64,000 bases of DNA from an uncultured Acidobacteriota bacterium (GCA_963700145.1 OY969474.1:4960001-5024000); one strand, 5' to 3'; positions 1-15,995 are shown, numbered from the stretch's first letter. Numbers and translations are program-made. Notes: generated by a model from the sequence alone, not told the origin.

Positions 1-134
1 CCTTCAGCGGAGCGGGCCACGGCGCCGAAGGCCGTCGCCGCCCGGGGCGGGGCGATCAGGTTGGTCATCTGTTCGACGCCGAGCAGGGACATGGCCCACG
101 AGAAGCTCGCCAGGGATTCAGCCAACTCACGCAT
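1..134 (-). CDS. Partial gene running off the window edge; N-terminal SWAMS-domain protein
   Basis: Not in the ORF track. Manual translation from ATG 134 gives MRELAESLASFSWAMSLLGVEQMTNLIAPPRAATAFGAVARSAE, matching the N-termini of 6116-7870 and 10579-10995. GAGGAG lies upstream. Confidence 0.85.
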   Translation of the reverse strand, partial: MRELAESLASFSWAMSLLGVEQMTNLIAPPRAATAFGAVARSAE

Positions 135-150
135 CGACGTCGCTCCTCTG

Positions 151-1377
151 CTAGAACTGTTCCGGAACCTCGGTCTCGAGGGTCTCGACGCCGGGGATGA
201 TGCAGCCCTCCTGATAACAGTCGTGTAAGGAGGCGTCGCTGAACCCCTTGTAGATGAGCTCTTCGAGGTGTGTGGGGTCGAGGTTCAACATGCCCAACGC
301 GCCGCCTCCGAGCTCTTCCCGGGGATGGAAGCGGTGGATGGTCACCGGGCGGTAACTGGTGAGTGACTTCAATCCGCCCAGCGCGAGGACGGCTCCCTTC
401 CCCAGCCGCTCCAGCTCCAGCTCGGGCAGCGCCTCGCCGCGCCGCAGGCGATCGAAGGCCTCGAGCCCGCGGTTGATTCGGCGCGCCCGGTAGATCTCGC
501 GATTGACCAGCGCCGCCCACGCAATGGTCTGCAGGCGATAGGACGTGGCAACCGTGCTGTCCAGGGTGCTGAGCGGGATGGAGGCGACGTCCGGATCGAG
601 GTAGACGACGTAGATAACGTCGGCCTCGTTGAGCGCCGGGCGGAGCGGAGTATTGATCAGGACGCTGCCGTCCACGAAGGGCTCGGCGCCGACGAAGATC
701 GGGGGCAGGACGCCGGGGACGGCGCTCGACGCCTGGATCGCCAGGGGGCCGAGGTTGTCCGACATGTCCCGGTTGCCGAAGCTCCTCACCCGTCCCGTCG
801 TCCAGTTCGTAGCGAAAATCCGCAGCTTTCGCGTCGCTTCGGTGCGGCGAATGTTCGGGAAGTTGATGGTCTGCCGGATCGTCTCGCTCCACGGCGCGGT
901 CGAGACGAAGACCGTGAAGTCGAACAGGTTGGCGACCCTCTCCCTCAGGCCCTCTTGCTCTCCGGTGGCGAGGTAGACCGCTCTCTGGATTCCCTCCCAG
1001 GTGAGATACGCGCTGTCGCGGCCCAGCTCGAGCAGCGGGCGCAGAGGGTTCGGCACGTAGGCCGTGGGATCCAGGAAGAGGCCAGGATCGCCGCGGAAGC
1101 GGTAGATGCCGTTGCGCGCAGGGTCGCCGGCCAGGGTGCCGAGCCACACGCGCTCGAGATTGGCGACCGCCGCCGGGCCGAACTCATCCCATTGCGAGAC
1201 CAGAAAGGCGGCGTTGTAGGAGCCGATCGACGTGCCGAAGAAGTGTCCCGGTTCGATCAGCCCGAGACCCTTGCACTTGCCGCTGAACAGCGCCTTGAGG
1301 ACGCCGACCTCGTAAGCTCCATTGGCGCCCCCGCCGGAGAGAACGATCGCCTGCCGCGGTGCGCTTGGGCCGTTCAC
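151..1377 (-). CDS. Patatin-like phospholipase
   Basis: LSGGGANG Gly-rich loop, GTSIG nucleophile elbow, ASSAVPG and the DGS catalytic Asp motif. Confidence 0.92.
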   Translation of the reverse strand: MNGPSAPRQAIVLSGGGANGAYEVGVLKALFSGKCKGLGLIEPGHFFGTSIGSYNAAFLVSQWDEFGPAAVANLERVWLGTLAGDPARNGIYRFRGDPGLFLDPTAYVPNPLRPLLELGRDSAYLTWEGIQRAVYLATGEQEGLRERVANLFDFTVFVSTAPWSETIRQTINFPNIRRTEATRKLRIFATNWTTGRVRSFGNRDMSDNLGPLAIQASSAVPGVLPPIFVGAEPFVDGSVLINTPLRPALNEADVIYVVYLDPDVASIPLSTLDSTVATSYRLQTIAWAALVNREIYRARRINRGLEAFDRLRRGEALPELELERLGKGAVLALGGLKSLTSYRPVTIHRFHPREELGGGALGMLNLDPTHLEELIYKGFSDASLHDCYQEGCIIPGVETLETEVPEQF

Positions 1378-1435
1378 CTCAACCCCCCGTCACGGCCGGA
1401 GAAGCTTCCATGGACGTGTCTCGTCCTCCTGCAGC

Positions 1436-2323
1436 TCAACGCCGGGGCCGGCTGCCGGTCGGCGCGGTGCCCTTGCCAGGCGCCGGGGCCTTGCCAGGGG
1501 CGGCTGTCTCGCCAGACGTCTGGGAGGCGCCGGCTCCGCCGCCGAAGTATGCTCCCACGCTGTGGACCAGCAGGTAGTCCGCCGATCGATAGTGCGGGTA
1601 CTCCCTAGCGATCCGGCCGATCGCCTCCTGCGCCGTTTTCGATGACTCGACCGCGGCGATGAAGAAGCAGATATAGGTCCGCAGCTCGTCGAAGATCGAG
1701 GTATCGACCGGGAACTCTCCGTGCCCCCCGAAAACGCTCCGGATCGACCGCCCTGTCGGTATCTCTTCGAGGTGACGGAGCCACATGCCGGGCTGCTTCC
1801 CCGTCAGGAACAGGTGGACACGGTTGTAGACCAGGTCGCCGGCGACGAGCGTTCTGGCGCGCGGGATGTAGAAAGCTGTCTGGTGGCTCGCTTCTCCTCC
1901 CGCGTACTGCAGGAGCTGGACCTCCTCCCTGTCGATCCTCAGGCTCGAATCCTGGCAGCTCTCGGGCACGACCAACTCTTCACAGGCCAGCGGTCCATAC
2001 TTTTGCTTCACCAGATCGAGCATGAAAGCGCCCTGCGCCGCGATCGTCGCCGCCACCTCCGGCGCCGCGAGGATCGGGGTGTGCCGAAATTCGTCCCGCA
2101 GGACCTGAAGCCCCCCGAAGTGATCGGGGTGAGGATGGGAGATGTAGATCTGCTTGAGCCGCCAGCCACCCTTCTTGATCAGGGCCGCAAGTTTCTGCGC
2201 CGCCGGCCTTATCACGTGTGCATCGACCAGCATGGCCTCCCGATCGCCCGCGATCAGGACTGCGTTCTCCAGGACGCCCGACTTCCCGTCCAGGTGGTGG
2301 ATCACGTTCAGTGTGAATGGCAT
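1436..2323 (-). CDS. Metallo-beta-lactamase-fold hydrolase
   Basis: SHPHPDH, VAGD and GHG motifs; GGAGG before ATG 2323 (the ORF extends to 2335). Confidence 0.88.
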   Translation of the reverse strand: MPFTLNVIHHLDGKSGVLENAVLIAGDREAMLVDAHVIRPAAQKLAALIKKGGWRLKQIYISHPHPDHFGGLQVLRDEFRHTPILAAPEVAATIAAQGAFMLDLVKQKYGPLACEELVVPESCQDSSLRIDREEVQLLQYAGGEASHQTAFYIPRARTLVAGDLVYNRVHLFLTGKQPGMWLRHLEEIPTGRSIRSVFGGHGEFPVDTSIFDELRTYICFFIAAVESSKTAQEAIGRIAREYPHYRSADYLLVHSVGAYFGGGAGASQTSGETAAPGKAPAPGKGTAPTGSRPRR

Positions 2324-2363
2324 GTCTACCTCCATCCATCGGTTCTGGCTGCAGCGGTCCCCA

Positions 2364-3653
2364 TCACAATCCTCTTCCCGAGAGGACCCAGGCCGGCAGC
2401 TCAGGGCTGAGCCAATCCGGTACCTGCCGCCAGGTCATGAGCGAGCCGGTGATCAGCGTGTAATGTTGCATGAAGTGTTGGACCAGCATGTCTTTTTCTA
2501 GCTGCGCTCTCGAGATGCAGAGATCCTCGGCCGCGCGGCCCCCGGTGAGGGCGTTGACGAGATCGACGTAGCCGAAGAGCGGATCGAAGCCGGGCGCCGC
2601 GCGCGAGGTCTGTTGGAGCAGGGCATAAAAGGGGGCAAACACGCGCGAGGTGAGCCCGAGCGACACAAGGTTGGCGAGCTGAGCGCCCCAGGTGAAAGGA
2701 TCCAGGGGGACGTCGAGGATCTGCTGCGGCCGGTTGATGACGAACGTGAGGCAGACGCGGATCTCGCCACTGTCACGGATCTTGAAATCGATGAGCTGGA
2801 AACCGGGGCCGAAGCGGCCTGGGCCGTAGACGAGCGGGCCGCGGGCCAGGGGGTTGCGGAGCACCGCGTAGCCGAACCCGTACTCCGCGAGCAGCCCCGG
2901 CCCCGGGTCGTCGACGGCGCGGATGAACGGTTTCGCCAGGACGATCGGGGTCTCCTCGCTAAGCGGTATCGTGAGGTACGGCTGCTCACCACCGAACGGC
3001 CGGAAGGTCAAGGTGAAGTCGAAGATGCGGACGCTCGCGACGATCCATTCGTAGATCGGGCCGATCTCGCGCAAGTCCACGATGGCGCCTTGCTGCGCGG
3101 GCGGAAATTTGCCGACGCGCCCCGAGCGGCGCAGCTTGTAGAAGAGCTGCCGGTAGCCGAATCCCTGGCGGGTTTCCTCCGGCCGTGGGCACCAGCTCAG
3201 GCCTGGGATGTGGAGCCCCCGCCCCTCCCGGTTCTCGTCGACGAAGGCCTCCGGGGCGCGGTAGTCGCTGACGCGCATGAAGTAGCGCAGCACGAACGCA
3301 CGGAGCTGGTCGCGATAGACCATGGCCTCTGCCGCCTTCGGGCGGTCGTAGGACAGGTCCTGGAAGCATCCCATGACCGGCAGCTCCCGATCGCCGGGCA
3401 GCGTCGCCACGTCGAAGAAGCCGAAGCTCGTGTCGGCGGGGTTGAAGGTCCGCATGATCTGGAACTTGTCGCTGTATGCCCCGGCGCGGTCGACTGCCTC
3501 CCACCAGTGCTGCAGCGCCACGGCCTCGGCCACGGCCTGCTCGACACCGCCGAGCAGCGCCGAGTCGTCCTCCGTCAGCAGCCCGCCGGGCTGATCGAAT
3601 CCCGACGTCTGGTCGGTGGGAGGACCGATCGAAACCTGAGGCTCGCTCAACAC
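2364..3653 (-). CDS. Hypothetical protein, 429 aa
   Basis: Coding-like aromatic-rich composition, overlaps the upstream gene's stop and shares cluster orientation; no motif recognised. Confidence 0.8.
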   Translation of the reverse strand: MLSEPQVSIGPPTDQTSGFDQPGGLLTEDDSALLGGVEQAVAEAVALQHWWEAVDRAGAYSDKFQIMRTFNPADTSFGFFDVATLPGDRELPVMGCFQDLSYDRPKAAEAMVYRDQLRAFVLRYFMRVSDYRAPEAFVDENREGRGLHIPGLSWCPRPEETRQGFGYRQLFYKLRRSGRVGKFPPAQQGAIVDLREIGPIYEWIVASVRIFDFTLTFRPFGGEQPYLTIPLSEETPIVLAKPFIRAVDDPGPGLLAEYGFGYAVLRNPLARGPLVYGPGRFGPGFQLIDFKIRDSGEIRVCLTFVINRPQQILDVPLDPFTWGAQLANLVSLGLTSRVFAPFYALLQQTSRAAPGFDPLFGYVDLVNALTGGRAAEDLCISRAQLEKDMLVQHFMQHYTLITGSLMTWRQVPDWLSPELPAWVLSGRGL

Positions 3654-6073
3654 CAGGCGCTCGCTAGAGCGTCCCCGAACCGGCCGTCGGGATCGGAGAC
3701 GCGCAACACGTACAGGTTCGAAAGCGTCCGCGGAAAGACGCTGATGGCAGCGTTGAGAGACATCATGCCGACGGCGCCGCTGAACTGGCCGGTGCCCGAA
3801 ATGAAAGGCCCGAAGCCGCCGAAGCGGAACACCGGCATCGGCGCGCCGGGGAGCTGGGCCGGGAAGGCGCGGCCTTCGACGATGTCGGCGGTTAGCGTAC
3901 CGATGGTCCCGCCATGGCCGTCGAAGAACTGGAACACGCCGTTGCGCGTCTGGAAGGGGATGGGCGGTTGCAGCCCCGGCGCGAATGGGTTGAAGAGGAG
4001 CTGGCCGTCGAGCCTGCCGACGAGAGTCCCGACGCTCGTCTTGGCAAGCGGCGCCCGGCGGCCTGTGGCCGCCGAGTCGAGGTGGACCAGACGCAGAAGC
4101 TCGTGTACCGAAGCCCCTTGCATCTGGCCGCCCGGGCCGGAGATCGTGGTAGTGGGCTCATCGTCGTTCTCCTCGCCGAGGAAGGTGAGGAACGTCGTGC
4201 CCGGATCGGGGTCCGGGATCGGCACGAGCGCAGGCAGATCCGAGGTGGTGAGCAGATCGCCCGAGGGGTCGAGGACGCGCAGCATGATGTTGAGAGCGAG
4301 GCCGCTGGGGGGCGTGATGTAGCCGTTGACCACCACCGTCCCCTGGTGGTTCTTGAGCTTGCCATAGCCCTCGAGGATGTCGATGACCGCGCCGATGCGG
4401 AGCTGTGGCTGGCCATTGATGCGCATCGGGAAGGTGCGACCGGTCCCGAAGCCGTGAAAACCGCTGTGGCTGGCGTCGTCGAACCTGAACTCGCCGTCGA
4501 GAAAGGTGAAGCGCTGCGAGCGGGTCGGATCGAGGGGTGTCGGCGGCGGATCGCCGTTCGGATTCGCCACGTAGTCGTCGGGGATGGGTCGCCAGATGAT
4601 GTGTACCTTGGCCGCCGGCAGCCCGACGACATTCGCGGCCCGCAGCCCGCGCTCGGCGGTCGGCCGGGCCATCCGCACGTCGAAGCGGTGCAGGTTCTCG
4701 TGGACGTGGACCCCGATCATCTGGCCGTTGGCGATGATCGGCACGTTCGGCTCGGCGCTGTTGGGCATGGAGAAGAACGAGAAGTACGCGGCCCGCCGGA
4801 GCAGGTGCTGCACCACCTGCAGCTTGTAGCTCTCGGGATTGACCCCCGGCGGGAACGTAGGTGGCAGAGGCGGCATTCCGGGCGGCGGGCCCGGCGGCAT
4901 CCCGGCCGCTGCCGCCGCCGCGGGCGGGCCGGCGGGCGCACTGGCGACGGTCGGCGGAGAAGGAGCGCCGCCCGGGCTGCTCGGGCCGCCGGCGGCCGCC
5001 GCAGGGGGACCCTGGGGGATCGGCGCCTGGTTCTGCTTGCGGACGACCCGGAAGACGTCGAAGGTCTTGGCCGGGAACACGGTGTTCGGACCGAAGGGCG
5101 CGCCCGGGGCGAGCTGACCGGAACCGACGGCGCTCTTGACTCCGGAGGCTCCTTCGTACCTGCCCGTGCCGCCGGTGATGATCCCCATGGCGGTGGTCAT
5201 GAAGATCATCGAGCCGTCCGCGAGCGGCGCCAGGAACGCCTGGCTGGCACCGATGGCTGTGATCGAGTCCTCGTCGTTGAACTTCCACGTGGACTTGTAG
5301 TAGCCGCCGATTGGCAGCTGGGGGATCCCTCCGGGCTGGTCGATGGGCATCGACGGCATCGGGGGCTTCGTCATTAGCTGCTGCGGCGTCGCTGCGCCGA
5401 CCGCTGCCTGGATGCCCTCGTAGGAGCCTCCCGGCTGGCCGTCGGGTGTGAAGGTATCGATGCGCAGGATGATGTAGCGGGGATCCTCCAGGATGTAGCC
5501 GTTGCCGGCGCCGTAGCGGATGAGCACCTCTTCGCCCTGGACCCCGGGGTCGGTGACCGCCGGCGAGACCACCCGTCCGCCACCGGTCCGTGGCGACCGC
5601 CCGAAGGTCTCCGGTAGGACGCCGAGCTGCTGCAGCACGTACGCCCGGTCCCAGCCGATCCACGACTCCGCGCGCTTGCCGTTCTCCAGGAACCGGTTGA
5701 AGGCGAGCCCGTGGTACACGAAGGGCAAGTCCGTCGGCGGCAGGCCCATGAATCCGTTGGTCCGCGTGCCCTGGCTGGTGAAGCGCACCACGGTGAAGTT
5801 GTCCTTGGCGATCGCTTGGTCCACCGTGAAGCGGATGTCGGAAAAAGCCTTGAAGAACCCCTCCAGCGCCGCCTGGGCGTTCTCGGCGCCTTCGATTTTG
5901 CCGCCGGGCAAGGTATCGGTGAACCACTGGTAGTCGGGGGTCACCCCGGCGACGAAACCGCTGGCGTCGTGAGCGTTGAAGTTGACCCACCCCTTCAGCG
6001 TCGCCTGCAGATTGCGCTCTTCTGCCTCCTGCCGCCGCTGTTCGCTCGTCATGATCGCCTGTTCGCTCGTCAT
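3647..6073 (-). CDS. SnoaL/ester-cyclase domain + AOC/dirigent-like barrel + Pro/Ala linker + two further barrel-like repeats
   Basis: N-terminal AFSDIRFTVD...VVRFTSQGT...FMGLPPT (SnoaL-like); barrel signatures ITGGTGRYEGASG, ILEGYGKLKNHQG and FISGTGQFSGAVG. Confidence 0.75.
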   Translation of the reverse strand: MTSEQAIMTSEQRRQEAEERNLQATLKGWVNFNAHDASGFVAGVTPDYQWFTDTLPGGKIEGAENAQAALEGFFKAFSDIRFTVDQAIAKDNFTVVRFTSQGTRTNGFMGLPPTDLPFVYHGLAFNRFLENGKRAESWIGWDRAYVLQQLGVLPETFGRSPRTGGGRVVSPAVTDPGVQGEEVLIRYGAGNGYILEDPRYIILRIDTFTPDGQPGGSYEGIQAAVGAATPQQLMTKPPMPSMPIDQPGGIPQLPIGGYYKSTWKFNDEDSITAIGASQAFLAPLADGSMIFMTTAMGIITGGTGRYEGASGVKSAVGSGQLAPGAPFGPNTVFPAKTFDVFRVVRKQNQAPIPQGPPAAAAGGPSSPGGAPSPPTVASAPAGPPAAAAAAGMPPGPPPGMPPLPPTFPPGVNPESYKLQVVQHLLRRAAYFSFFSMPNSAEPNVPIIANGQMIGVHVHENLHRFDVRMARPTAERGLRAANVVGLPAAKVHIIWRPIPDDYVANPNGDPPPTPLDPTRSQRFTFLDGEFRFDDASHSGFHGFGTGRTFPMRINGQPQLRIGAVIDILEGYGKLKNHQGTVVVNGYITPPSGLALNIMLRVLDPSGDLLTTSDLPALVPIPDPDPGTTFLTFLGEENDDEPTTTISGPGGQMQGASVHELLRLVHLDSAATGRRAPLAKTSVGTLVGRLDGQLLFNPFAPGLQPPIPFQTRNGVFQFFDGHGGTIGTLTADIVEGRAFPAQLPGAPMPVFRFGGFGPFISGTGQFSGAVGMMSLNAAISVFPRTLSNLYVLRVSDPDGRFGDALASAWC

Positions 6074-6115
6074 GATCGTCTCCTTGATCGAGGTCTCGAG
6101 GACGCTCTCCCCGCT

Positions 6116-7870
6116 TCAGCGGGCCGGCGAGCCGGTCCGTACCGCCGGAAGGTTGCGATACCACTCCGCCATTGCCGTGCCAACGAGGTACGGATTCGTC
6201 TCATGCGGGTAGTGCAGGCCGGGCCCAACGTTGACGGAGACCAGATTCTTCAGGTTCTGCTGCAGCCAGCGGACGCTGTCGGAGGTGATGATCATCCCCG
6301 GCACGACATAGATGAGGAGCTTCGGCAGGTCGGTCCCGACGAGCCAGGGAATGTACCCGTCGACGATCCGGGCCACGGCAGCGGGCTGACCTTCGATCGG
6401 GATCTCGTTGACCCAGCGCCAGATGACCTCGCGGTTGACCTTCTCGCGGTACGGCAGGCGCGTCCATTCCATCTCTTCCTGGGTGACCGCCCGCCCCATG
6501 ATGCTGGGAGTCAGCACCTCAATGAAGATGTTCTGGTCGACGATCGCCTTGTAGCCGAAGCTGTCCTTGCTTGGATACCCCTCGCGGAAGAGGCGGAAGT
6601 TCTCGCGCACGAACTGGGGCGCGTCCGGCTCGGGGAACGTGCTCCACTGCGGATAGCTCTTGTACACCGCTTCCATGAAGATGAGGCCACGCACGTTGTC
6701 GGGATGACGGCTGGCGTAGTCGAAGCCGATGGCCGACCCCCAGTCGTGCATGACGAGAGTGATGTTGCGCAGTCCCTTCCGCGAGATGAAGCTCTCGATG
6801 AACTGGATGTGATCCTGGAAGCCGAAGCTGGCGTCCTCGGGTTTGGAGCCCGGTCCCATGCCGATCAAGTCCGGCGAATAGCAGCAGCCGAGCCCGACGA
6901 GGTGGGGAAAGATGTTGCGCCAGGTGTAGGACCAGTTCGGGTTGCCGTGGAGGAACACGAAGGGCTCTCCGGACCCGGCTTCGACGTAGCTCATCTCGAA
7001 GCCCTTGCCGCCGGGGCCTTGCACGTCGATGGTCTGGAGCTGGTAATTCCAGGCGGCCGAGGGGAACTCGACGTCGGCTTGCCGGACGAGCCGGAACGTC
7101 GCGACGGCGTCGCATCGCAGCTCCGCGCCCGGAGCGAACGGCGCGCCGCTGGGGAGGATGCCCCGCCCCAGGAAGGTGGCGCCGCCGAGCAGGCCGCTGT
7201 AGCGGCCGGAGCCGCCCGCGACATTGCCGGCTACCGAGAGGAGGAAGACGCTGGGGCCCTCCTGGTAGCGGGCGAGATTGAGGAGAGCCGGCCCGGAGAA
7301 GCCGACGGAGCCGCCGTCGGAGCTGCCCCAGGTCGCCGCGGCCTGAGCCCGGACCGTCGTGGGGCTCGTCGTGTGGTTGGATGCCCAGGCGTCGTGAAAA
7401 GGCTGCGCCGGCAGGTCGTACCAGGAGTACCACCGGTTGGCGTTCTCCGGCTCGTTCAGGTACGAGACGTCGAACACCACTCGGAGGTCACCGCCGGACT
7501 TCGACTCGAAAACGATCCTGCCGTCCTGGCCGAACTGCAGTGTGCCCTCGCCGGAGAAGGCGAGCGCCGAGTCACCCCCGTCGTCCAGTCCGTGCACCCC
7601 GCTCGCGGCGGCACCGCCCGGCGCGGCCCACAGCCGTGGATCGAAGACCCCGAACATGGTGTCCACCAAGCGCCTTTGCAGCTCGTCGCCGGCATGGAAC
7701 GCATCCGCGAAGAGCCCCTCGAGCTGAGCCTTGGCGGCCCGCGTCACCGCGTCGAGCGATGCCCCGCCGCCGCCGAGGTTTCGCGGGTCCACCAACGAAG
7801 CGAGCTGCCGGGCACCGAAGAGCGACATGGCCCACGAATAGCTGAGCAAAGACTTCGTCAGGTCACGCAT
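6116..7870 (-). CDS. Fusion: SWAMS domain + AOC/dirigent-like barrel + haloalkane dehalogenase (DhaA-like alpha/beta hydrolase)
   Basis: FLHGNPNWSYTWRN, HDWGSAIG, FMEA and GLHY motifs; VAGGSGRYSG barrel motif; N-terminus MRDLTKSLLSYSWAMSLFG. Confidence 0.85.
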   Translation of the reverse strand: MRDLTKSLLSYSWAMSLFGARQLASLVDPRNLGGGGASLDAVTRAAKAQLEGLFADAFHAGDELQRRLVDTMFGVFDPRLWAAPGGAAASGVHGLDDGGDSALAFSGEGTLQFGQDGRIVFESKSGGDLRVVFDVSYLNEPENANRWYSWYDLPAQPFHDAWASNHTTSPTTVRAQAAATWGSSDGGSVGFSGPALLNLARYQEGPSVFLLSVAGNVAGGSGRYSGLLGGATFLGRGILPSGAPFAPGAELRCDAVATFRLVRQADVEFPSAAWNYQLQTIDVQGPGGKGFEMSYVEAGSGEPFVFLHGNPNWSYTWRNIFPHLVGLGCCYSPDLIGMGPGSKPEDASFGFQDHIQFIESFISRKGLRNITLVMHDWGSAIGFDYASRHPDNVRGLIFMEAVYKSYPQWSTFPEPDAPQFVRENFRLFREGYPSKDSFGYKAIVDQNIFIEVLTPSIMGRAVTQEEMEWTRLPYREKVNREVIWRWVNEIPIEGQPAAVARIVDGYIPWLVGTDLPKLLIYVVPGMIITSDSVRWLQQNLKNLVSVNVGPGLHYPHETNPYLVGTAMAEWYRNLPAVRTGSPAR

Positions 7871-8023
7871 GGCAGAAACCCCTCTTCGCCGGCCTGTGCC
7901 AGCCCAGCGCCTCGCACCCCCGTGCCTCCAGTGGGCGACACAGCGGTCCTGTACGCCGCGAAGCGCGTCCCGGCCCGGGGCCTGGCGCCTCGCGGCGCAT
8001 CCGGCCTTCCGGAAGACGGCGGC

Positions 8024-8656
8024 TTAGGTCGCCGCTGCGCCGGCCTCGCCACCGCCGCGCCGGCCTCGTCCTCCTCCACCGGTCGTCTCGGCGCTCTCGC
8101 CGCCTTCGCGCCCCTTCTCCAAGCAGACGCAGTCCGCGATCCGCTCGAGGGCCGCGAGCTGCCGCGACTCGAAATGCAGGTCCTGCTTGGCCCAACGGTC
8201 CAGGACGTTGTAGTAGACCCGGATGTACATGGCGTCACCAAGCGGGACGGCGTCGCAGCCGTACTTGCGCACGATCCAAGCGGTGAATCCATCCGGCGTG
8301 AGATTGTCCGTGACGAGGTCTTCGCCCTGCGTGAAAACCTGCTCGCCGTCGCGCTTGACGCTGACGAGGCTCCACTGGACGAGCTTCACCATGTCGTCGC
8401 TCAGGTTCCTGTCTCCCATCTTCCTTTCCTCCTTGCGTGTAGAAAGACTGCTCGGTTCCAACCGACGGTTTCCTTCTGCTTCGACAAAGCCTTCACCCGG
8501 CGTCGTGCCGGGATAAGGATCGATCGAGTTCCGCATCCCGCTCATGGTCAGCTCGGCCTGCCGCTCCATGTTCTGCACCGCCCGTGCGATCGCCTCGAGT
8601 CCGTTGGCGAACATCATGAACGGCATCAGCAACAGACGACCGAAGAGCTCCAGCAT
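8024..8656 (-). CDS. Hypothetical protein with a probable internal in-frame second start at 8419
   Basis: Coding-like ORF with GGGGAG upstream; AAGGAGG lies 8 nt before the internal ATG (MGDRNLSDDMVKLV). Confidence 0.8.
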   Translation of the reverse strand: MLELFGRLLLMPFMMFANGLEAIARAVQNMERQAELTMSGMRNSIDPYPGTTPGEGFVEAEGNRRLEPSSLSTRKEERKMGDRNLSDDMVKLVQWSLVSVKRDGEQVFTQGEDLVTDNLTPDGFTAWIVRKYGCDAVPLGDAMYIRVYYNVLDRWAKQDLHFESRQLAALERIADCVCLEKGREGGESAETTGGGGRGRRGGGEAGAAAT

Positions 8657-8657
8657 C

Positions 8658-8723
8658 TCAACCGCTCCCCAGGCGTCTGCCCGCCCAAGGAGCCTTCGTC
8701 ACCTGCCGGAAGAGCTCGAACAT
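8658..8723 (-). CDS. Putative 21-aa micro-ORF MFELFRQVTKAPWAGRRLGSG
   Basis: ATG overlaps the upstream stop (TGATG); its stop is 1 nt before the next ATG; resembles that gene's N-terminus MLELFGRLLLMPF. Confidence 0.4.
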   Translation of the reverse strand: MFELFRQVTKAPWAGRRLGSG

Positions 8724-10393
8724 CACCCATCTCCGCGAGCGCTCCGGCGGCGCCCGCTCCCTAATCTCCATAGCAACAACCCGCCGAATAGCAGGGCGAC
8801 CGCCGCCCCGGCCGGCTGAGCCCAGGCGAGCCCCGCGCCCGCGAGCTGCCGCACGAGGAGCGTCAGCGCCGCGACCGCGGCGACGAACGCCGCGACCAGC
8901 AAGGTCGCGCCTCGCTCGTCGCCGCGCTCGGGACGGCCGACGTAGCTTGCCGGCTGCCGCGTGCCGTCCGCGGCGCGGGTGAGCGCTTCGTCGAGGTGCC
9001 GTGGGAGCTCGGCCATCAGCACCGCGTAGCGCTCCAAGCTCTCGCGCATCTCGGTCAGCGTCATCATGTCGCGGAGCTGCCCGGCGGTGGTCAGCAGCCG
9101 CACCTCCTGCAGGGCTTCGGCCAGCGCGTCCTGCTCCGGCGCCAGCCGGCGGGCCGCCGCGGCGACCGCGAACAGGCCGCGGTAGAAGGCGACCAGGTGG
9201 GCGCGCGGCCGGTAGCCGCACGCGCGCGCCAGACGCCAGTGCACGAAGAGGTGCTCGGCGAGGCTGTCGCCGCTCGCGCTCCAGGCGCCGTCGCGGAAAG
9301 GGACCACTTGGCGCAGGCGGAGGCGGACCTGCTTCTCGCCGGCGGCCGTGGCGCCGGTCATCTCCCGCAACAGGTAGGTGCACGCCCGGTCGGGATCGCG
9401 CTCCGAGGCCGCGATCAGGTAGCCCCAGAGGTGGCTCTGGGAGAGCGCGGTAGGCGCCGCGAACGGCCCGCCGGTGAAGGCGATGCGGCCTTCCGCGAGC
9501 ACCACGAGCCCGGCGATCGGCTCGACCGGGAACGAAGGGCCCCGCAACGCCCGGTAAAGCCAGGCGATCGCCACCCGCCGTGCCATGCTCAAGCGGTCCT
9601 GGCGCTCGAGGAGAGCGGAGCCCGGCTTCGCGTAGCCGGGCTGCAGCGCTTCGTCCAGAGGCACTCCCCCGACCCACTCGAGGGTGATCGCCTTGGGGCG
9701 CGCGAGCTCCCGCACGACCCGCGGGGTCGAGATCAGGTCCAAGCGGCCCGCATCGGTGGCCAGGGCGTCCAGCGCCGCCGCCTGCGCCGCGAGGTCGAGC
9801 ATGTCGGGCAGAGCCTGGCGGAAGTCGTCCACGGCCACCGCCAGCGGGCGATCGAGCGCCTCGCCGGGGCCCGGGACGTCGGCGAGCAGGTCGAGCAGCT
9901 CCAGGTCCGGCTCGAGCCACGCCTCCAGCCCCGGCCGCACCACCCGCACCAGGACCGGCTCGCCGTTGCGCAGCGTCGCGCGGTGCGCCTGGACGAGGAG
10001 GCGCGACTCGAACGGCGCCTCGTCGAGCTCGGCGTAGAGGTCGCGCGGTTCACGCCCCAGCTCGGCCGCGAGGCGCTCGAGGACGGCGCCGGCCGGCGCC
10101 GGCTGCGCGCGGTCTGGCAGCGCCGCCAGCTCGACGCAGTCGGCGACCGGCAGCAGGTCGGGGCGCGAGCCGAGATAGACCGCGAAGGACGAGAAGACCG
10201 GCCCCAGCCGCTCGAGCGCTCCGCGCAGGCGGCGGCCGAAGCCTCCGTCCTGCGCCGCCGCCGTCGCGGGCCGGGGATCCAGGCCGCGCGGCCCGCCGAA
10301 CAGCTCGCACTCGGCGAAGCAGCGCTGGACCTCCTGCCGGCGCCGCTGCCGCTCGCCGAGCGGCGGCCGCACGCGATCCGCTCGGCTCCTCAT
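8723..10393 (-). CDS. ABC1/UbiB/AarF-family pseudokinase
   Basis: ABC1 scaffold (LERLGPVF...RPDLL, LPDRA, VVRPG) with degenerate catalytic motifs and two C-terminal TM helices; start uncertain (10393 or about 10555). Confidence 0.78.
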   Translation of the reverse strand: MRSRADRVRPPLGERQRRRQEVQRCFAECELFGGPRGLDPRPATAAAQDGGFGRRLRGALERLGPVFSSFAVYLGSRPDLLPVADCVELAALPDRAQPAPAGAVLERLAAELGREPRDLYAELDEAPFESRLLVQAHRATLRNGEPVLVRVVRPGLEAWLEPDLELLDLLADVPGPGEALDRPLAVAVDDFRQALPDMLDLAAQAAALDALATDAGRLDLISTPRVVRELARPKAITLEWVGGVPLDEALQPGYAKPGSALLERQDRLSMARRVAIAWLYRALRGPSFPVEPIAGLVVLAEGRIAFTGGPFAAPTALSQSHLWGYLIAASERDPDRACTYLLREMTGATAAGEKQVRLRLRQVVPFRDGAWSASGDSLAEHLFVHWRLARACGYRPRAHLVAFYRGLFAVAAAARRLAPEQDALAEALQEVRLLTTAGQLRDMMTLTEMRESLERYAVLMAELPRHLDEALTRAADGTRQPASYVGRPERGDERGATLLVAAFVAAVAALTLLVRQLAGAGLAWAQPAGAAVALLFGGLLLWRLGSGRRRSARGDG

Positions 10394-10578
10394 CGCGCCG
10401 CTCGCCGCCGCGCTGCCCGCGCCGGCAGCGGCTGGTACTCGAACACCGAGCCCAGCCTGTTCTCGCGCTTGAGCATGGGATACCAGACCTCGATCGCCAG
10501 CGTCGCCGTCGACGCCCTCCAGCTCGGCAGCGTGTTGTCGCAAGAACGTTACCATGATCCAGGGCTGCCGCAGCTCCG

Positions 10579-10995
10579 CTATGCACCGGGCGCGGGGATC
10601 GGCCCCCAGCCCGACTGCGGCTGCGGCGCGGAGGGCACGGCCTGGGTGGAGCGCTGCATCAGGTCGACGCCGGCCTGCGCGGTCTGGCAGATTGCGTCGG
10701 CGCCGGTGCGCATCGCGCCGGTGGCGCCGGGGGCCCAGGCGGCTGGGTTCCAGGTGCCGCCGGAGCCGATCATCCCGAACATCATGTCGACCATCCCCTT
10801 CTGCATGCTGTCGCCAGCCCGGTACAGCGACCGCAGCGTCTGCCCGAGTTGCCCCTCGGTTGTGCTGGACACCCCGTTCAACGAAGAGGCGGCCTGGCCC
10901 CAGGTCTGCGGCATCAGCAGGTTGGCCGCCTGCTTCAAGCCGAACAGTGACATCGCCCACGAGAAGCTCATCATCGACTTCGTCAGTTCGCGCAA
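10579..10995 (-). CDS. Stand-alone SWAMS-domain protein, 138 aa, Met-rich and helical
   Basis: TTG start with AAGGAG RBS; MRELTKSMMSFSWAMSLFG...AGDSMQKGMVDMMFG. Confidence 0.85.
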   Translation of the reverse strand: MRELTKSMMSFSWAMSLFGLKQAANLLMPQTWGQAASSLNGVSSTTEGQLGQTLRSLYRAGDSMQKGMVDMMFGMIGSGGTWNPAAWAPGATGAMRTGADAICQTAQAGVDLMQRSTQAVPSAPQPQSGWGPIPAPGA

Positions 10996-11031: not shown

Positions 11032-12699
11032 TCAGGCGAGCCTGAGCATGATTCGGAACAGCATCGCCAGAGCGGCGCCGGCCAGCACGGCCTCCGCCGT
11101 GAACAGGTTGATCCCGGGCTCGGCGGGTCCCCCCGCCACCAGCATCAGCAGCGACAGTGCGCAGGCCGTGACGGCGAGCTGGAGCGCCCGCTGGCGCGAC
11201 TCTCGATGGGACGCCGGGGCGGACCGCGGTACTTCGGCCGCGCCGGGCGGCCCGTCGGCGGCGAACTGCTCCAGGGCTTTCGCCGCCCGAAACGCTCCGT
11301 CGCGGAGCAACCGGGCGCTGGCGCCGGTCCAGTCGATGAGCCGGTCCTCGGCCACCAGCCGCTGCCACCCCTCCCGCCGCAGGTTGCGCTCGCAGACCTC
11401 GGCGAGGTAGGCGCCGACGTCGAACCCGGGCGCGAAGCGGGTGATGAGGCCGTCGATGGCGATGGCCGAGCGGATGTACTTGATGACGTCCCGCTCCGGC
11501 CAGATGCCGGTGGTGCGCGACAGCCGCAGCATGTCGAGCATCACCAGGGTGAAGTTCTTGCGCAGCTTGCGCTGCTTGCCGCGCTGCTCGTACCAGGCCT
11601 CGGCGAAGCGGTCGAGACCGGCGCGGAAGGCGGCGACGTCCGCGCCGGTGTCGAGAGTGGAGACCTTGAGGAAGGCGGTGCACATCCCGTCGAGGTCGCC
11701 GCGCGTGTAGGCCAGGGTCATGGTGATCAGATGACCGCGGGAGTATTGGCTGAGCACGCCGGTGATGCCGAAGTCGACGTAGCCGACGACGTTGCCGGGC
11801 TGGATCAGCAGGTTCGCCGGATGCAGGTCGGCGTGGAAGATGCCGTGGCGGAAGGCGTCGCCCAGGAAGTTGTCGATCATGTGGCGGCCGAACCGGTCGG
11901 GCTCGAAGCCGGCGGCGGCGAGCCGCCGCGGCAGCAGCTCCTCGCCGCTCTCCAGCGCCCGCAGGTAGTCGAGCACGGTGACGCCTTCGAGGAACTCGAC
12001 CGTCAACACCCGCGGCGTGGTGAGCTCGACGACCAGCTCCGGCACCCGCTCGTGGGGGTTGTCCTGCGCGTTGACCCGCAGCCGCTCCATGTAGCGGGCC
12101 TCGTTGCGGTAGTCGAGCTCCTCCAGAGTCCAGGCCACGAACTCGCTCATCGGCTCGATCACCCACTCGAGCCGGCGGATGCGGAAGCGGCGGATCGCCC
12201 CGACCATCGCGCTCATCAGCCGGATGTCGCCGGCGAAGTCGGTGACGACGATCGGCCGCTGCACCTTGACGGCGAGCTTGCGGCCGCCGCGCCAGGCGAC
12301 GTGCACCTGGCCGATCGATGCGGTAGCCAGGGGCTGCCGCTCGAAGACGTCGAAGAGCTCGTCGGGGCCGCGCCCCAGGTCGGCGCGCACCACCGCCTCG
12401 ACCTCCGCGTACGGGAACGGCGCCACCCGGTCGAGCAGGTCGAAGAGGGCGTTGCAGTACTCCAGCGACAGGATGTCGGGCTGCAGCGCCAGCATCTGGC
12501 CGAACTTGATGAAGGTGCCGCCGAGGTCCTCCAGCAGAGCGGCGAAGCGCCGCGGGCCGGGGAGGTCCCCCGGCGGCAGCCGCCGGGCGAGCGCCGGCCA
12601 GCGCGCCAGCCGCGGGCCGAGCGCGTGCGCCACGCCGTGCGCCGCGAGCACGCGCAGGATGTTCCCGAGCCGGCGGAGGTTGGCGGCGGCGGTCCTCAC
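11032..12699 (-). CDS. ABC1/UbiB/AarF atypical kinase/ATPase
   Basis: LGGTFIKFGQ (KxGQ), ATASIGQVH, AVKVQRP, HADLHPAN and DFG; GTG overlaps the upstream stop; C-terminal TM helices. Confidence 0.93.
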   Translation of the reverse strand: MRTAAANLRRLGNILRVLAAHGVAHALGPRLARWPALARRLPPGDLPGPRRFAALLEDLGGTFIKFGQMLALQPDILSLEYCNALFDLLDRVAPFPYAEVEAVVRADLGRGPDELFDVFERQPLATASIGQVHVAWRGGRKLAVKVQRPIVVTDFAGDIRLMSAMVGAIRRFRIRRLEWVIEPMSEFVAWTLEELDYRNEARYMERLRVNAQDNPHERVPELVVELTTPRVLTVEFLEGVTVLDYLRALESGEELLPRRLAAAGFEPDRFGRHMIDNFLGDAFRHGIFHADLHPANLLIQPGNVVGYVDFGITGVLSQYSRGHLITMTLAYTRGDLDGMCTAFLKVSTLDTGADVAAFRAGLDRFAEAWYEQRGKQRKLRKNFTLVMLDMLRLSRTTGIWPERDVIKYIRSAIAIDGLITRFAPGFDVGAYLAEVCERNLRREGWQRLVAEDRLIDWTGASARLLRDGAFRAAKALEQFAADGPPGAAEVPRSAPASHRESRQRALQLAVTACALSLLMLVAGGPAEPGINLFTAEAVLAGAALAMLFRIMLRLA

Positions 12700-14357
12700 G
12701 GCCGCGCTCCTCCCGGCGCCGAAGCGGGCTCGGCGACCGGTCCATCTTCGGCGTCGAAGATGGAGCCCCAGAAGAGGTGCTTGCGCCGCCGCAGCATGTC
12801 GGCGATCGCTTCCTCCAGCCGGCCGCGCACTTCCTGGCTGATCGCCTGGACGATCGCCGGATCGTCCGCCGCCTCGGGCGGGTAGCGGCCGGCGACGTGC
12901 AGCGGCTCGAGGAAGCGAGTGTGCCACTTCGAGGGCAGCGGCAGGCCGGGGAGCGGGAAGTTGGGGCCGAGCGGGAAGTACGGCCACTCGAGGAAGCGGT
13001 GCACCCAGCCGGCGTTGAGGCGCGCGAAGATCGGGTAGATCTCGGCGCTGCCGACGGTGACGAAGGGGACGATCGGCGCGCCGTGCCGCAACGCCATCTT
13101 CACGTACTCGTCGCGCCCGAACTTGCCGAGCAGGTAGGCGCGGCGGTAGGGCGTGAAGGCGCCGTGGATCCCCTCCGGGAACATCCCCAGCAGCTCGCCG
13201 CGCTCGAGCACCCAGTCGCCGTTCTCCTGGCAGGCCGGGATGCCGCCGAGCTTGGTCATGTAGTTGGCCAGGAACGGCTGCTTGACCAGGCAGGGGTGGA
13301 TGAGGAAGCGGATGATCCGCCCGGTCCCCCGCGCCACGGTGTGCAGCGCCATCACTCCGTCCCAGGGCATGAAGCCGCGGTGCACGCCGGTCAGCACGGC
13401 CGCGCCGCGCCGGGGCACGTGCTCGAGGCCGCGCACCTCGATGCGCCAGTAGGCGCGGTGGAGGAAGCGGAAGAGGGTGCGGCCGTAGGCCGCGATGTAC
13501 CGCTCGTCCATGCCGTAGTCGTCGAAGTCGGGGGCGCCGGCCGGGTCGCGCCCGCCGGCGGCGAGGAGCGCCTCGGCGCTCGAGCGCTGCGGCGCCCAGC
13601 CGAGGGCGCGCAGCCGGCGGTCGCCGACCGTCCAGGGGTGGCGCAGGTAGGCCAGCTCGGCGGCGTTGGCCCGCCCAAAGAGGCGGAGCAGCGGCCCGGG
13701 GAGCGGCAGGGCGCTGGCGCCGGCCAGGCGGAGGGCGTCGCGCACCGGCACGACGCCGCGCGGCGCGACGTGGAAGACGCCGTCCGCGTCGCGGTCGACG
13801 ACGCAGCCGACCGCGGCGGCGAGGTCCTCGGGCGCCAGGAGCTGGAGCGAAGGGCCCCAGCCGGCCAGCGGGAAGGCGCGGCGCCGCAGCAGGAAGCGGG
13901 CGAGGGGGTCGCCGCCGTCGCGCGCCACCACCGTCGCCGGCCGCAGCACCGCCAGCCGCCCGCCCCAGCCGGCGGCGGCCGCCGCGGCCATCGCCTCGAG
14001 CTCCAGCCAGCGGCGGGCGATCGGGTTGCGGCCGCGCGGGCGCGTCTCCTCGCCGACGTGGCCGGCGTGCTCGTGCACGGGGTCGTGGACCTGTGCGCTC
14101 GACAGCAGCACCAGCCGCCGCGGCCGGACCGCGCCGAGGGCGTCGAAAAAGCGCGCCGCCGCGTCCAGGTCGGGCCCGCGGCCGGGGAGCGCCCGCGGCC
14201 GGAAGACCACGGTCTCGGTCCCGGCGTCGAGCCGCGCTGCCGCCGCCGGCTCGTCGCCGAGGAGAGCCAGTGCGTCCGCGGCGTCGCCGCCGCGCAGCCG
14301 TTCGGCGATCGCGGCGCTGACGCCGTCCCGCGGCCCGACGAAGGCGACTCTGGCCAT
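12696..14357 (-). CDS. Degenerate extended-SDR/epimerase domain fused to a lysophospholipid acyltransferase
   Basis: N-terminal LVLLSSAQV, LRPATVV and QLLAPEDLA; C-terminal VHRGFMPWDG, FPEG and PLPSKW; AAGGAG RBS. Confidence 0.85.
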   Translation of the reverse strand: MARVAFVGPRDGVSAAIAERLRGGDAADALALLGDEPAAAARLDAGTETVVFRPRALPGRGPDLDAAARFFDALGAVRPRRLVLLSSAQVHDPVHEHAGHVGEETRPRGRNPIARRWLELEAMAAAAAAGWGGRLAVLRPATVVARDGGDPLARFLLRRRAFPLAGWGPSLQLLAPEDLAAAVGCVVDRDADGVFHVAPRGVVPVRDALRLAGASALPLPGPLLRLFGRANAAELAYLRHPWTVGDRRLRALGWAPQRSSAEALLAAGGRDPAGAPDFDDYGMDERYIAAYGRTLFRFLHRAYWRIEVRGLEHVPRRGAAVLTGVHRGFMPWDGVMALHTVARGTGRIIRFLIHPCLVKQPFLANYMTKLGGIPACQENGDWVLERGELLGMFPEGIHGAFTPYRRAYLLGKFGRDEYVKMALRHGAPIVPFVTVGSAEIYPIFARLNAGWVHRFLEWPYFPLGPNFPLPGLPLPSKWHTRFLEPLHVAGRYPPEAADDPAIVQAISQEVRGRLEEAIADMLRRRKHLFWGSIFDAEDGPVAEPASAPGGARP

Positions 14358-14374
14358 GCTCCTTCGGCTCCTCG

Positions 14375-15958
14375 CTATCCCGCCCGCGCCCACCCCGCCG
14401 GGCCGGCGCGGCTCGGCACCAGGGACGGCTCCAGCGCCGTCCCGAACGGCTCGTCGAGCGCGGCGTCGCGCCCGTCCAGGATGCGGCGGGCCACCTGCTG
14501 CGCCGAGACGATCACCGGCGTGATCCCGCCCCCCGGCTGCACCCAGTGGCCGACGAGGTGGAGGTTGCGCACCGGGCTCTCGGTCCCCGGCCGGTCCGGG
14601 CCGAGCTGGTCGGGCGACATCTCCCAGCCCAGCATCGCCCCCTGATGGTTGAGGGTGAAGCGCCACGAGGTCTGCGCCGTGGCGCTGCTGCTGACCACGA
14701 TGTGCTCGCCGATCCCGGGGAGCACCCTCTCGAGGTTGCCGAAGACGTACTCCTCGAGCCGCCGCTTGTGCGCCGGCCAGTCGGTGATCCCGTCGTAGTC
14801 GATGTCGAGCACCTTCTGGACGATCAGGACCTTCCCCCCCTCCGGCGCCATCGCCGGCTCGTAGAGGGTGGGCGAGAAGAGCTTGAAGCGCAGCGCGTTG
14901 CGCCCCATCCCCCGCGGGTCCCAGTCGTCCCAGTAGTAGCCCTGCGCCGCGTTCAGCACTTCGTCGGGCACGTCGCGCAGGCCGAGGTGGGTAAGCCAGC
15001 AAGGGAAGGTGCAGCGCAGCTCGCGCAGCGCCGCGAGGTGGCCGTCGGGCAGGTGCTCCTCCCCGACCAGCTCCTCGTAGGTGAGCAGGAGGTCGGCGTT
15101 CGAGACCACGACGTCGCTGCGCACCGCGGCGGGCCCCCGCCACGGGCCGCGCAGCGTCTCGAGCTCCACCCCGCGCGCCGTGCCGTCCTCGATCAGGATG
15201 CGCCGCGCCGCCGTGCTCATCAGCACGTGGCCGCCCTGCTCCTCGAGGCGCAGCGCCAGCTCGTCGGCGAAGGCCTGCGAGCCTCCCTTCGGGTAGTAAT
15301 TGCCGAGGAAGTAGGAGAGCCGCAGCATCGAGTCGAAGACGAAGGAGGTGCGGTCGGGGGGCGAGCCCCAGTGCGGCGCGTCGGCGGTCAGCAGGAGCTT
15401 GAGCTTGGGGTCGCGGAACCACTCGTCGAGCGCGTCCATCACCGTGACTTCGCGCAGCGGCTGGAGCTTCTCGACGCGCGCCGCCGGCAGGCCGCGGAAG
15501 TAGTGCAGGAGGCCGGCGAAGTAGGCCTTCCGCACCGTGCCGAAGAAGCCGTCGAGGGCCGCTTCCTCGTGCGGGAACTCGGCCTTGAGGGCGTCGAGGT
15601 AGGTCTCGAAGTCGGCGGCGACGGCGAAGCGCGTGCCGTCGGGGAAGTGGAAGACGTCGACCGGGTCCATCTTGACCCAGCCCGTCGTGACGCCGAGCTC
15701 GGCGAGGATGCGCCCCGGCAGCGTCTCGGGGTTGCCGAGCAGCGGGTAGAAATGAGTGGCGGCGTCGAAGGTGTAGCCGCCGCGGCGGAAGGTGCTGCAG
15801 AAGCCCCCGGCCATGTAGTGCTGCTCGACGAGCAGTACCTTCATGCCGCCGCGCGCCAGCAGGTTGGCCGCGATCAAGCCGCCGATGCCGGAGCCGATGA
15901 TCACCGCGTCGTAGCGCGGGTCGGGCGGCCGGCGCAGGCCGCGGAAGGGTCGCTTCAT
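14375..15958 (-). CDS. Phytoene desaturase/CrtI-like FAD-dependent oxidoreductase
   Basis: DAVIIGSGIGG, GGFCSTFRRGGYTFD, YPKGGSQ and NLHLVGHWVQPGGG. Confidence 0.9.
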   Translation of the reverse strand: MKRPFRGLRRPPDPRYDAVIIGSGIGGLIAANLLARGGMKVLLVEQHYMAGGFCSTFRRGGYTFDAATHFYPLLGNPETLPGRILAELGVTTGWVKMDPVDVFHFPDGTRFAVAADFETYLDALKAEFPHEEAALDGFFGTVRKAYFAGLLHYFRGLPAARVEKLQPLREVTVMDALDEWFRDPKLKLLLTADAPHWGSPPDRTSFVFDSMLRLSYFLGNYYPKGGSQAFADELALRLEEQGGHVLMSTAARRILIEDGTARGVELETLRGPWRGPAAVRSDVVVSNADLLLTYEELVGEEHLPDGHLAALRELRCTFPCWLTHLGLRDVPDEVLNAAQGYYWDDWDPRGMGRNALRFKLFSPTLYEPAMAPEGGKVLIVQKVLDIDYDGITDWPAHKRRLEEYVFGNLERVLPGIGEHIVVSSSATAQTSWRFTLNHQGAMLGWEMSPDQLGPDRPGTESPVRNLHLVGHWVQPGGGITPVIVSAQQVARRILDGRDAALDEPFGTALEPSLVPSRAGPAGWARAG

Positions 15959-15995
15959 TGGAGAGAACCGCCTCCGCGGGGGAGGGAGCGCCGCA

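Follow-up and report, generated by a model that had tools for sequence, protein, structure and literature searches.

PE, LXG and similar domains of secreted proteins are conserved N-terminal helical domains that stand alone, carry Gly-rich tails or precede lipases and variable domains, and the docking domains of polyketide synthases (PKS) and nonribosomal peptide synthetases (NRPS) occupy the extreme N-terminus and bind a short C-terminal peptide of the partner. Encapsulation and other cargo tags are approximately 10-20 residues in length, are poorly conserved and need shell genes, and 11-mer repeats are typical of phasin-, perilipin- and apolipoprotein-type proteins. In Escherichia coli, a small helper gene adjoins ubiB. 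UbiB itself is proposed to extract membrane lipid intermediates for a soluble complex together with the small accessory factors UbiJ and UbiK (10.64898/2026.03.05.709815). Here we describe a domain termed SWAMS, which is encoded in the genome of an uncultured Acidobacteriota bacterium (GCA_963700145.1), and compare its locus with these systems; the analysis started from a stretch of 64,000 nucleotides (OY969474.1:4960001-5024000), referred to below as the window. SWAMS constitutes a new N-terminal protein family that is modular, its fusion partners are confined to one system, and a pair of UbiB/ABC1-family genes flanks the gene for its stand-alone form. It is a real, previously unannotated N-terminal domain of approximately 75-80 residues. 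Quite possibly, it is a protein-docking or localization module that gathers tagged enzymes and an adaptor at the membrane-anchored UbiB pair.

Three proteins encoded on the minus strand of the window carry N-termini that fit the pattern MR[ED]L..S..S[FY]SWAMSL[FL]G..Q...L. The corresponding features are as follows.

10579..10995, minus strand: SW138, the stand-alone SWAMS protein, an open reading frame (ORF) call of 138 aa with the N-terminus MRELTKSMMSFSWAMSLFGLKQAANL; its sequence opens MRELTKSMMSFSWAMSLFG
10765..10995, minus strand: SWAMS N-domain of SW138, residues 1-77, from the profile match (1-77) and the conservation map
6116..7870, minus strand: SW-DHL, 584 aa, N-terminus MRDLTKSLLSYSWAMSLFGARQLASL, SWAMS followed by a beta-rich region and a haloalkane-dehalogenase-type hydrolase; its sequence opens MRDLTKSLLSYSWAMSLFG
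7634..7870, minus strand: SWAMS N-domain of SW-DHL, residues 1-79, from the sequence and the profile match
1..134, minus strand: first 44 codons of SW130, the third copy, N-terminus MRELAESLASFSWAMSLLGVEQMTNL, start at 134; its sequence opens MRELAESLASFSWAMSLLG

The third copy had been described in the initial annotation as cut off by an edge, which is true of the window, but the genomic gene is complete (L002:1480-1872, minus strand) and encodes a stand-alone protein of 130 aa with the C-terminus ...GWGPVQPPRTSRQQ. It is followed after 8 bp by the gene for a 411-aa protein, which is paralogous to the C-terminal half of the product (808 aa) of the gene at 3647-6073. When the whole 5.46-Mb single-contig genome was searched with SW138, the other two copies were recovered with E-values of 1.7e-18 and 1.7e-17 and no further significant copy was found, the next match having an E-value of 0.14; two such strong matches followed only by one of this kind exclude chance and indicate that there are exactly three copies in the genome, so that the shared N-terminus proposed for the three proteins is borne out. 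The residues listed for a second shared motif (V, QL, [AS]GD, Q, VD and F-G) were also right and recur in the completed third copy, but the gap between QL and AGD is nine residues rather than the six given. The TTG start codon of SW138 sits 8 nt after a ribosome-binding site (AAAGGAG), and third-position G+C is high in all three SWAMS genes, as in real genes of this genome.

No match to the SWAMS domain was found in Pfam, NCBIfam or the sequences of Protein Data Bank (PDB) structures, including any match to a known catalytic or signal family, which would have spoken against a tag. A word-seeded search with SW138 yielded 62 homologs of 98-206 aa, all unnamed or 'hypothetical', and a family profile built from 47 N-domains and searched against 1.84 billion cluster representatives matched 988 of them at E ≤ 1e-3 and 706 at E ≤ 1e-10. 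The members inspected comprised 150 listed profile matches and a list of 120 proteins longer than 140 aa. The match begins at residue 1-13 in 149 of these 150, the lone exception (P0181) being an open frame that lacks an initiating Met and has MRDFTKS at residue 88. SWAMS appears to occur almost only in Acidobacteriota; one homolog from outside this phylum (P0038) is labelled Candidatus Entotheonellia by its source. Two stored homologues (P0043 and P0178) returned only unnamed acidobacterial clusters in the ESM Atlas. No published description of the domain or its cluster was met, which is weak evidence that they are unpublished because such motifs cannot be searched as text and subscription journals lay outside the scope.

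Positions conserved in at least 90% of 207 members are M1, R2, K6, S7, S10, W13, G19, Q22, P29, G61, D62, Q65 and D70. Conservation is nearly unbroken at residues 1-7 and 10-19, polar residues included, and the segment after P29 is a hot spot for insertions and deletions. The first and best-conserved segment is moderately hydrophobic, but its hydrophobic moment is low (0.08-0.36). Strong amphipathicity is found at residues ~46-72 (moment ~0.6). Weak covariation (z ~3) of antiparallel type links residues 17-25 with 51-57 (L17-L54, F18-L57, L20-G51 and K21-S56), a hint of a small helical bundle. The amphipathic helices suggested in the initial annotation are thus recognizable at residues ~46-72 and in the repeats of the tail, but not in helix 1, which has a low moment and is conserved on nearly all faces. 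Because of this conservation on nearly all faces and the many polar residues involved, a specific protein contact is favoured for the domain.

The constant N-terminal position of SWAMS, together with the conserved N-terminal unit and variable tail of the stand-alone forms, could also be explained if it were a leader of the kind found in ribosomally synthesized and post-translationally modified peptides (RiPPs), or a secretion or sorting signal. NCBIfam includes models of NHLP/Nif11 leaders. Neither these nor any other leader family matched, SW138 being without an NCBIfam match at E ≤ 0.01, and no maturase, peptidase, transporter or secretion genes were found among the cluster genes scanned. 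In addition, the domain is fused to proteins of 370-1,100 aa, and conservation in the stand-alone forms extends to the C-terminal end of the tail (GWGPMP). Kyte-Doolittle hydropathy of SW138 peaks at 0.81 (19-residue window), which is far below the level of membrane helices and too low for the h-region of a Sec signal, and no twin-arginine (RR) motif is present, although this is a crude test. A leader or export signal is thus extremely improbable. A transmembrane anchor within SWAMS was dropped on the same hydropathy value. SWAMS also differs from PE, LXG and PKS/NRPS docking domains, to which it has no sequence relation, and secretion-system genes are absent from the cluster.

The stand-alone proteins consist of the domain followed by a Gly/Ala/Pro/Ser-rich tail that often ends with GWGPMP. 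The motif GW[GS][PAS][MVILT] is present near the C-terminal end in 139 of 214 members of 120-299 aa, and the pattern GWG[PAS] lies at a median distance of nine residues from this end. The tail of SW138, the last residues of which are GWGPIPAPGA, contains this motif and, before it, two repeats.

10594..10611, minus strand: GWGPIP motif of SW138, residues 129-134, from motif counts in the family
10639..10704, minus strand: two 11-residue amphipathic repeats of SW138, residues 98-119, G[AV]D..Q..[AT]QA, from reading of the sequence

Across the family, self-identity of the tails is raised at lags of 7, 11 and 18 residues, and of 25 pairs of successive motifs of the G[AV]D..Q type, 20 show a spacing of 11 residues; two or more such motifs occur in just 20 of 163 tails. 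One 180-aa protein (P0067) has a tandem SW-SW arrangement followed by an EEWGPV motif and represents a natural bivalent form.

These repeats and the amphipathic segment at residues 46-72 speak for the coat suggested in the initial annotation. In this reading, stand-alone SWAMS would cover a neutral-lipid or pigment droplet in the manner of phasins, perilipins or fibrillins, and the fused copies would bind the same monolayer and so place lipases and hydrolases at its surface. Phasins, perilipins and apolipoprotein-type proteins resemble SWAMS proteins in being small and helical, and SW138 and a subset of tails share with them the 11-residue repeats. In SWAMS proteins, however, the repeats lie in the tail outside the conserved domain, and most members lack them. 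Membership of the phasin family was not detected among 29 full-length members searched with hmmscan (E ≤ 1): Phasin_2 matched one of them with an E-value of 0.78, and SW138 had no match. Helix 1, with its low moment and its nearly complete conservation, is unlike generic lipid-binding helices, so that a coat appears to fit the conservation pattern less well than docking does.

The modular use of SWAMS is evident from the 120 listed proteins longer than 140 aa. Fifty-nine of these are the domain plus a tail, 55 are SW-X370, making X370 the commonest fusion partner, three share the SW-beta-rich-DHL architecture of SW-DHL, two are SW-Y450 and one is SW-beta-rich alone; no other kind of partner was found among them. 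The architecture of SW-DHL recurs in P0066, P0296, P0300 and P0305, and an additional one, SW-hydrolase-ABM, was found in P0179. Every partner family is also encoded in the same cluster type, and X370, Y450 and DHL occur at other loci without SWAMS or with a degenerate copy only. The suggestion of a shared N-terminal tag reused across proteins therefore stands: SWAMS is modular, is placed at the extreme N-terminus and takes its partners only from one cluster type. Fusions seldom carry the GWG-type motif: it occurs in 2 of 55 proteins of the SW-X370 size class and in 2 of 7 fusions to a hydrolase. In the latter two it is located in the linker, as though an entire stand-alone gene had been fused.

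X370 is an unknown domain of ~370 aa that is usually encoded directly after the stand-alone gene (e.g. L006:10548-11843, L010:10617-11921, P0178 and P0200); none was found in the genome from which the window derives. An identity with DUF1702 (score 0.75, 12% of members) was discarded for X370, as Pfam scans of seven such proteins gave no match to it at E ≤ 1. For Y450, a domain of ~450 aa, a single weak match to GDSL lipases (E = 0.0012) fell below the cut-off, and the genome of the window contains one distant relative of it, located elsewhere and without SWAMS. Searches of PDB sequences with X370 and Y450 returned nothing meaningful. The fused hydrolase of SW-DHL was assigned more precisely.

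6149..7006, minus strand: alpha/beta-hydrolase domain of HLD-II (haloalkane dehalogenase) type in SW-DHL, residues 289-574, from NF002938 and PDB 6y9g

It scores 294.6 bits against NF002938 (cut-off, 241 bits) and thus belongs to HLD-II, and it aligns with an ancestral HLD (PDB 6y9g, E = 2e-84) including HGNP, HDWGS, FMEA and GLH, which we take to be the HLD catalytic pentad.

In a tree of 47 domains, the partner label requires 13 changes (least possible, 5; mean after shuffling, 22.8), and DHL, X370 and stand-alone copies of a single lineage fall together in one clade (support, 94/96). With 79 columns, the tree is weak and compatible with both repeated shuffling and concerted change. The nature of the partners, which are enzymes and beta-rich domains of the same pathway, and the strong conservation of residues that would be buried polar and aromatic ones might also be expected of a small ligand-binding or carrier domain that passes a hydrophobic intermediate (polyene, isoprenoid or lipid) to fused or neighbouring enzymes. 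An 80-residue helical unit is small for such a pocket, however, no known lipid-binding family was matched, and the strict N-terminal position would be left unexplained; a carrier role is very unlikely.

In the window, the gene for SW138 lies between those of two UbiB/ABC1-family proteins. This flanking pair is the strongest association of SWAMS and was not pointed out in the initial annotation.

11032..12987, minus strand: ABC1a, UbiB/ABC1-family protein with intact motifs and two C-terminal hydrophobic helices, PF03109 E = 5.4e-53
8723..10372, minus strand: ABC1b, degenerate UbiB paralog with one C-terminal hydrophobic helix, partial PF03109 match, E = 1.3e-22

ABC1a, the true start of which is probably near 12705, belongs to the UbiB/ABC1 family by its domain and its catalytic motifs: all 17 orthologs retain KxGQ, the A-rich loop and the Lys, and 16 of the 17 retain HxDxHPxN. 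ABC1b is homologous but degenerate. Its PF03109 match spans profile positions 2-158 only, and its catalytic motifs are not intact: KxGQ is lost in 21 of 21 sequences, none of 20 retains the catalytic-loop Asp, the A-rich loop is likewise gone, and Lys is kept in 6 of 20. The catalytic-loop Asp of motif VIIb is required for the function of plant ABC1K1 (PMC11613423). Hydropathy of membrane-helix strength was found in ABC1a (two windows) and ABC1b (one window) among ten cluster proteins tested, the only other window of that strength being in the FAD-binding fold of an oxidase. Degenerate ABC1b orthologs are conserved in L005-L026, always paired with an intact ABC1a, and this active/dead UbiB pair may be of interest in itself. 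At L022:8458-9633, the ABC1a ortholog is split into several frames by frameshifts or assembly errors, and its SWAMS and ABC1b neighbours are intact.

The 22 loci compared for synteny come from species-representative genomes, and each carries the label Acidobacteriota (11 Thermoanaerobaculia, three Holophagales, one Pyrinomonadaceae and seven unclassified). The recurring gene order is acyltransferase, ABC1a, SW, (SW-X370), ABC1b, h210, C411 or beta-rich paralogs, unk429 and patatin. The stand-alone SWAMS gene directly follows ABC1a in 18 of the 20 testable loci, the two genes overlap by 4 bp in two loci, and three loci (L022, L023 and L024) consist of just ABC1a-SW-ABC1b and nothing more. When 401 genomes spread evenly over the phylum were sampled, 10 contained the domain (E ≤ 1e-5), and in all seven genomes whose regions were examined (7 of the 9 other positive genomes), a SWAMS copy lies beside ABC1a and/or ABC1b. 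A deep subfamily that lacks the Trp, M[DQ]KFLVSMMRFSTAMTLFG, also adjoins ABC1a and/or ABC1b. Occurrence independent of this cluster type, which would have counted against a dedicated tag, was not observed for the main copies, either in the 22 loci or in the seven further genomes.

The UbiB-UbiJ-UbiK system thus invites comparison, since both combine a UbiB-family ATPase with small non-enzymatic helpers and with enzymes acting on membrane-derived hydrophobic intermediates, as described for the former (10.64898/2026.03.05.709815). The SWAMS system differs in that it has two UbiB paralogs, one of which is degenerate, and in that the helper domain is also fused to enzymes. ABC1a scores 227 bits against TIGR01982, below the UbiB equivalog cut-off of 487 bits, and no ubiquinone genes were seen in the SWAMS cluster. 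UbiJ and UbiK would be expected to show an SCP2 domain and a coiled-coil family, respectively. SWAMS had no Pfam or NCBIfam match whatever, and without a known family match its membership of UbiJ or UbiK is unsupported.

The tight, deep-rooted adjacency to ABC1a, the three-gene loci that contain nothing else and the near-invariant Ser and Thr residues of helix 1 could also be those of a regulator or substrate of ABC1a, i.e. a UbiJ/UbiK-like factor or a phospho-switch at T5, S7, S10, S12 and S16, with the fusions placed under the same control. Ubiquinone synthesis that depends on UbiB is described as having UbiJ and UbiK as accessory factors (10.64898/2026.03.05.709815), but direct evidence for protein phosphorylation by ABC1K is stated to be lacking (PMC11613423). 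The lack of a match to SWAMS in Pfam and NCBIfam excludes the UbiJ and UbiK families only if they are modelled there, and a pure regulator would need no fusion to four kinds of partner. Such a role seems improbable. Complex prediction for ABC1a (residues 95-651, 17-row alignment) with the first 95 residues of SW-DHL as the SWAMS partner (47-row alignment) gave scores of 0.38, 0.37 and 0.38, compared with 0.00 and 0.00 for controls in which the partner was replaced and 0.30 for a control in which ABC1a was replaced; by the rule of the method, these values speak neither for nor against binding.

From these observations we infer a fold, a binding partner, a localization and a pathway for the SWAMS system. 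Its invariant core would be an intact UbiB/ABC1-type ATPase or kinase, a small SWAMS protein and a degenerate UbiB paralog, encoded in a row. SWAMS is predicted to adopt a small helical fold, with helix 1 at residues ~2-27, a variable loop after P29 and helices at ~36-50 and 52-75, and helix 1 would display a ridge of small residues (S7, S10, S12, S16 and G19) together with W13. Through this fold, SWAMS may make a specific protein contact, for which the likeliest partner would be the UbiB pair or other SWAMS copies and not bare lipid. Docking at the UbiB pair is favoured because the link to UbiB is older and tighter than that to any other cluster gene, and because UbiB is proposed to pass membrane lipids to soluble complexes via small helpers. 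The proteins that carry SWAMS, with X370, the GDSL-like Y450, a hydrolase of DhaA type or beta-rich domains, would be brought to one site. There, the cluster may handle the hydrophobic intermediates of a lipid or polyene-like pathway. The stand-alone form, with its presumably disordered tail, the 11-residue repeats of a subset and GWGPMP, would serve as an adaptor or accessory subunit, and analogy with docking domains that bind C-terminal peptides is suggestive of a binding role for GWGPMP.

Several points weigh against SWAMS being a docking module at the UbiB pair. Three genomes (L029, L031 and L037) contain extra, lone SW-X370 copies outside the cluster, and neither the 150 listed matches nor the 120 listed long proteins include a fusion of SWAMS to UbiB. 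h210 was found in just two of the 401 sampled genomes, compared with 10 for SWAMS, and is therefore not a universal receptor. The helices and the fold are deduced from sequence patterns and weak covariation, gene adjacency by itself fits a regulator or substrate equally, and direct binding to a lipid surface would account just as well for the acyltransferase, patatin, hydrolases and amphipathic tail repeats.

The remaining features of the cluster are as follows.

151..1377, minus strand: patatin-like phospholipase, PF01734 E = 2e-25
2364..3653, minus strand: unk429, conserved unknown cluster protein, from Pfam/NCBIfam scans and locus comparison
3647..6073, minus strand: protein of 808 aa with SnoaL-like, beta-rich and C411 domains, PF07366 E = 1e-17, and C411 paralogs
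8024..8656, minus strand: h210, unknown but conserved protein that begins with a hydrophobic helix, from scans and locus comparison
12696..25310, minus strand: upstream enzyme genes of the same minus-strand run, from Pfam/NCBIfam, partly common to related loci

The upstream genes encode an acyltransferase (PF01553, with a weak DAGAT match), a CrtI-family oxidase, a dioxygenase of carotenoid cleavage dioxygenase (CCD)/lignostilbene type, an FAD oxidoreductase, two 3-hydroxy-3-methylglutaryl-coenzyme A (HMG-CoA) reductase-like proteins, two acyl carrier proteins (ACPs), a FabF-like ketosynthase (KS) and a second KS. The downstream genes encode the SnoaL-like fusion, a metallo-beta-lactamase (MBL)-fold protein and the patatin, and the cluster ends with the 411-aa protein just beyond the window. 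No shell family (BMC-H/P or encapsulin) was found in a Pfam scan of the 36 window proteins and one neighbour, in which h210, unk429 and C411 matched nothing. Cargo tags of microcompartments and encapsulins resemble SWAMS in that one short helical tag is common to different enzymes of one cluster, but SWAMS is longer (75-80 residues), is highly conserved and also stands alone.

The gene content adds to the case for a droplet coat: two ABC1 proteins are encoded together with a patatin lipase, an acyltransferase resembling PlsC/DAGAT, hydrolases of alpha/beta and GDSL-like type and enzymes of the CrtI family and CCD type, and cyanobacterial lipid droplets contain three ABC1Ks, a DGAT2-like enzyme and carotenoid enzymes (PMC12223511). 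The likeness extends to plastoglobule and cyanoglobule droplets (ABC1K1/K3, fibrillins and PG18), in which several ABC1 proteins are combined with an acyltransferase, carotenoid-type oxidases and small structural proteins. Targeting to these droplets uses amphipathic helices (PMC12223511), whereas the best-conserved helix of SWAMS is not amphipathic. SWAMS shows no sequence relation to any known family, and the host is a non-photosynthetic acidobacterium in which no droplet is known. The comparison with plastoglobules put forward in the initial annotation thus gains one published parallel (PMC12223511) and remains an analogy. In addition, storage of neutral lipid by these bacteria is an assumption, and both ABC1 proteins have hydrophobic helices of the membrane-spanning type. 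We consider a coat unlikely, though it is still a serious candidate. A further idea is that of an unseen protein-lipid body or condensate of Acidobacteriota, which would be seeded by the UbiB pair in the membrane. Stand-alone SWAMS would polymerize or condense there through its N-domain, a disordered Gly/Ala/Pro/Ser-rich linker and the GWGPMP 'sticker', with SWAMS-tagged enzymes as clients of a lipid or polyene compartment; this appears rather doubtful.

The two class-I-like HMG-CoA reductase paralogs (window 15996-25310, minus strand) each adjoin an ACP gene. The enzyme set of this region (15996-25310), comprising HMG-CoA reductases, KSs, the dioxygenase and the CrtI-family oxidase, is unusual and was matched to no named pathway; hydrocarbon synthesis of the OleBCD type was considered but dropped because the HLD-like hydrolase was the sole fit. 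The C411 and beta-rich middle domains occur as 2-4 tandem paralogs per cluster (window 3647-6073; L002:237-1472, minus strand; L006; L014) and carry G-[GT]-G-x-[FY]-x-G-[AV]-x-G motifs reminiscent of allene-oxide-cyclase or dirigent barrels; they have no Pfam match. Members of the h210 family share a conserved helix at the extreme N-terminus (M..LFGQMM.LP...F), a C-terminal domain of ~100 aa with a DKKYLRVY motif and a Gly-rich tail, and had no Pfam or NCBIfam match. The idea that h210 is a hidden relative of SWAMS was discarded: hhalign placed columns 1-28 in register, but the probability (1.6%) and E-value (0.031) were not significant. G+C content is 0.66-0.69 at positions 1-8000 of the window and 0.70-0.77 across most of the remainder, and the distal half of the cluster, from the patatin to SW-DHL, may have a different history.

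Taken as a whole, the working of SWAMS comes closest to that of a shared tag for docking or targeting, a device of a known kind; what is new, within the literature searched, is the family and its tie to UbiB. The family comprises approximately a thousand sequence clusters that were without annotation, and the work draws attention to a cluster of 27 kb that consists largely of unknown families (SWAMS, h210, X370, Y450, unk429 and C411). The role and partners of UbiB/ABC1/COQ8 proteins have been a long-standing question, and here a UbiB pair is genetically tied to a dedicated small protein. Since its N-domain marks a defined set of client enzymes, the SWAMS system offers a compact bacterial setting for the partners, localization and ATPase control of these proteins. 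If SWAMS is indeed a portable localization tag, it would be usable to co-localize enzymes.

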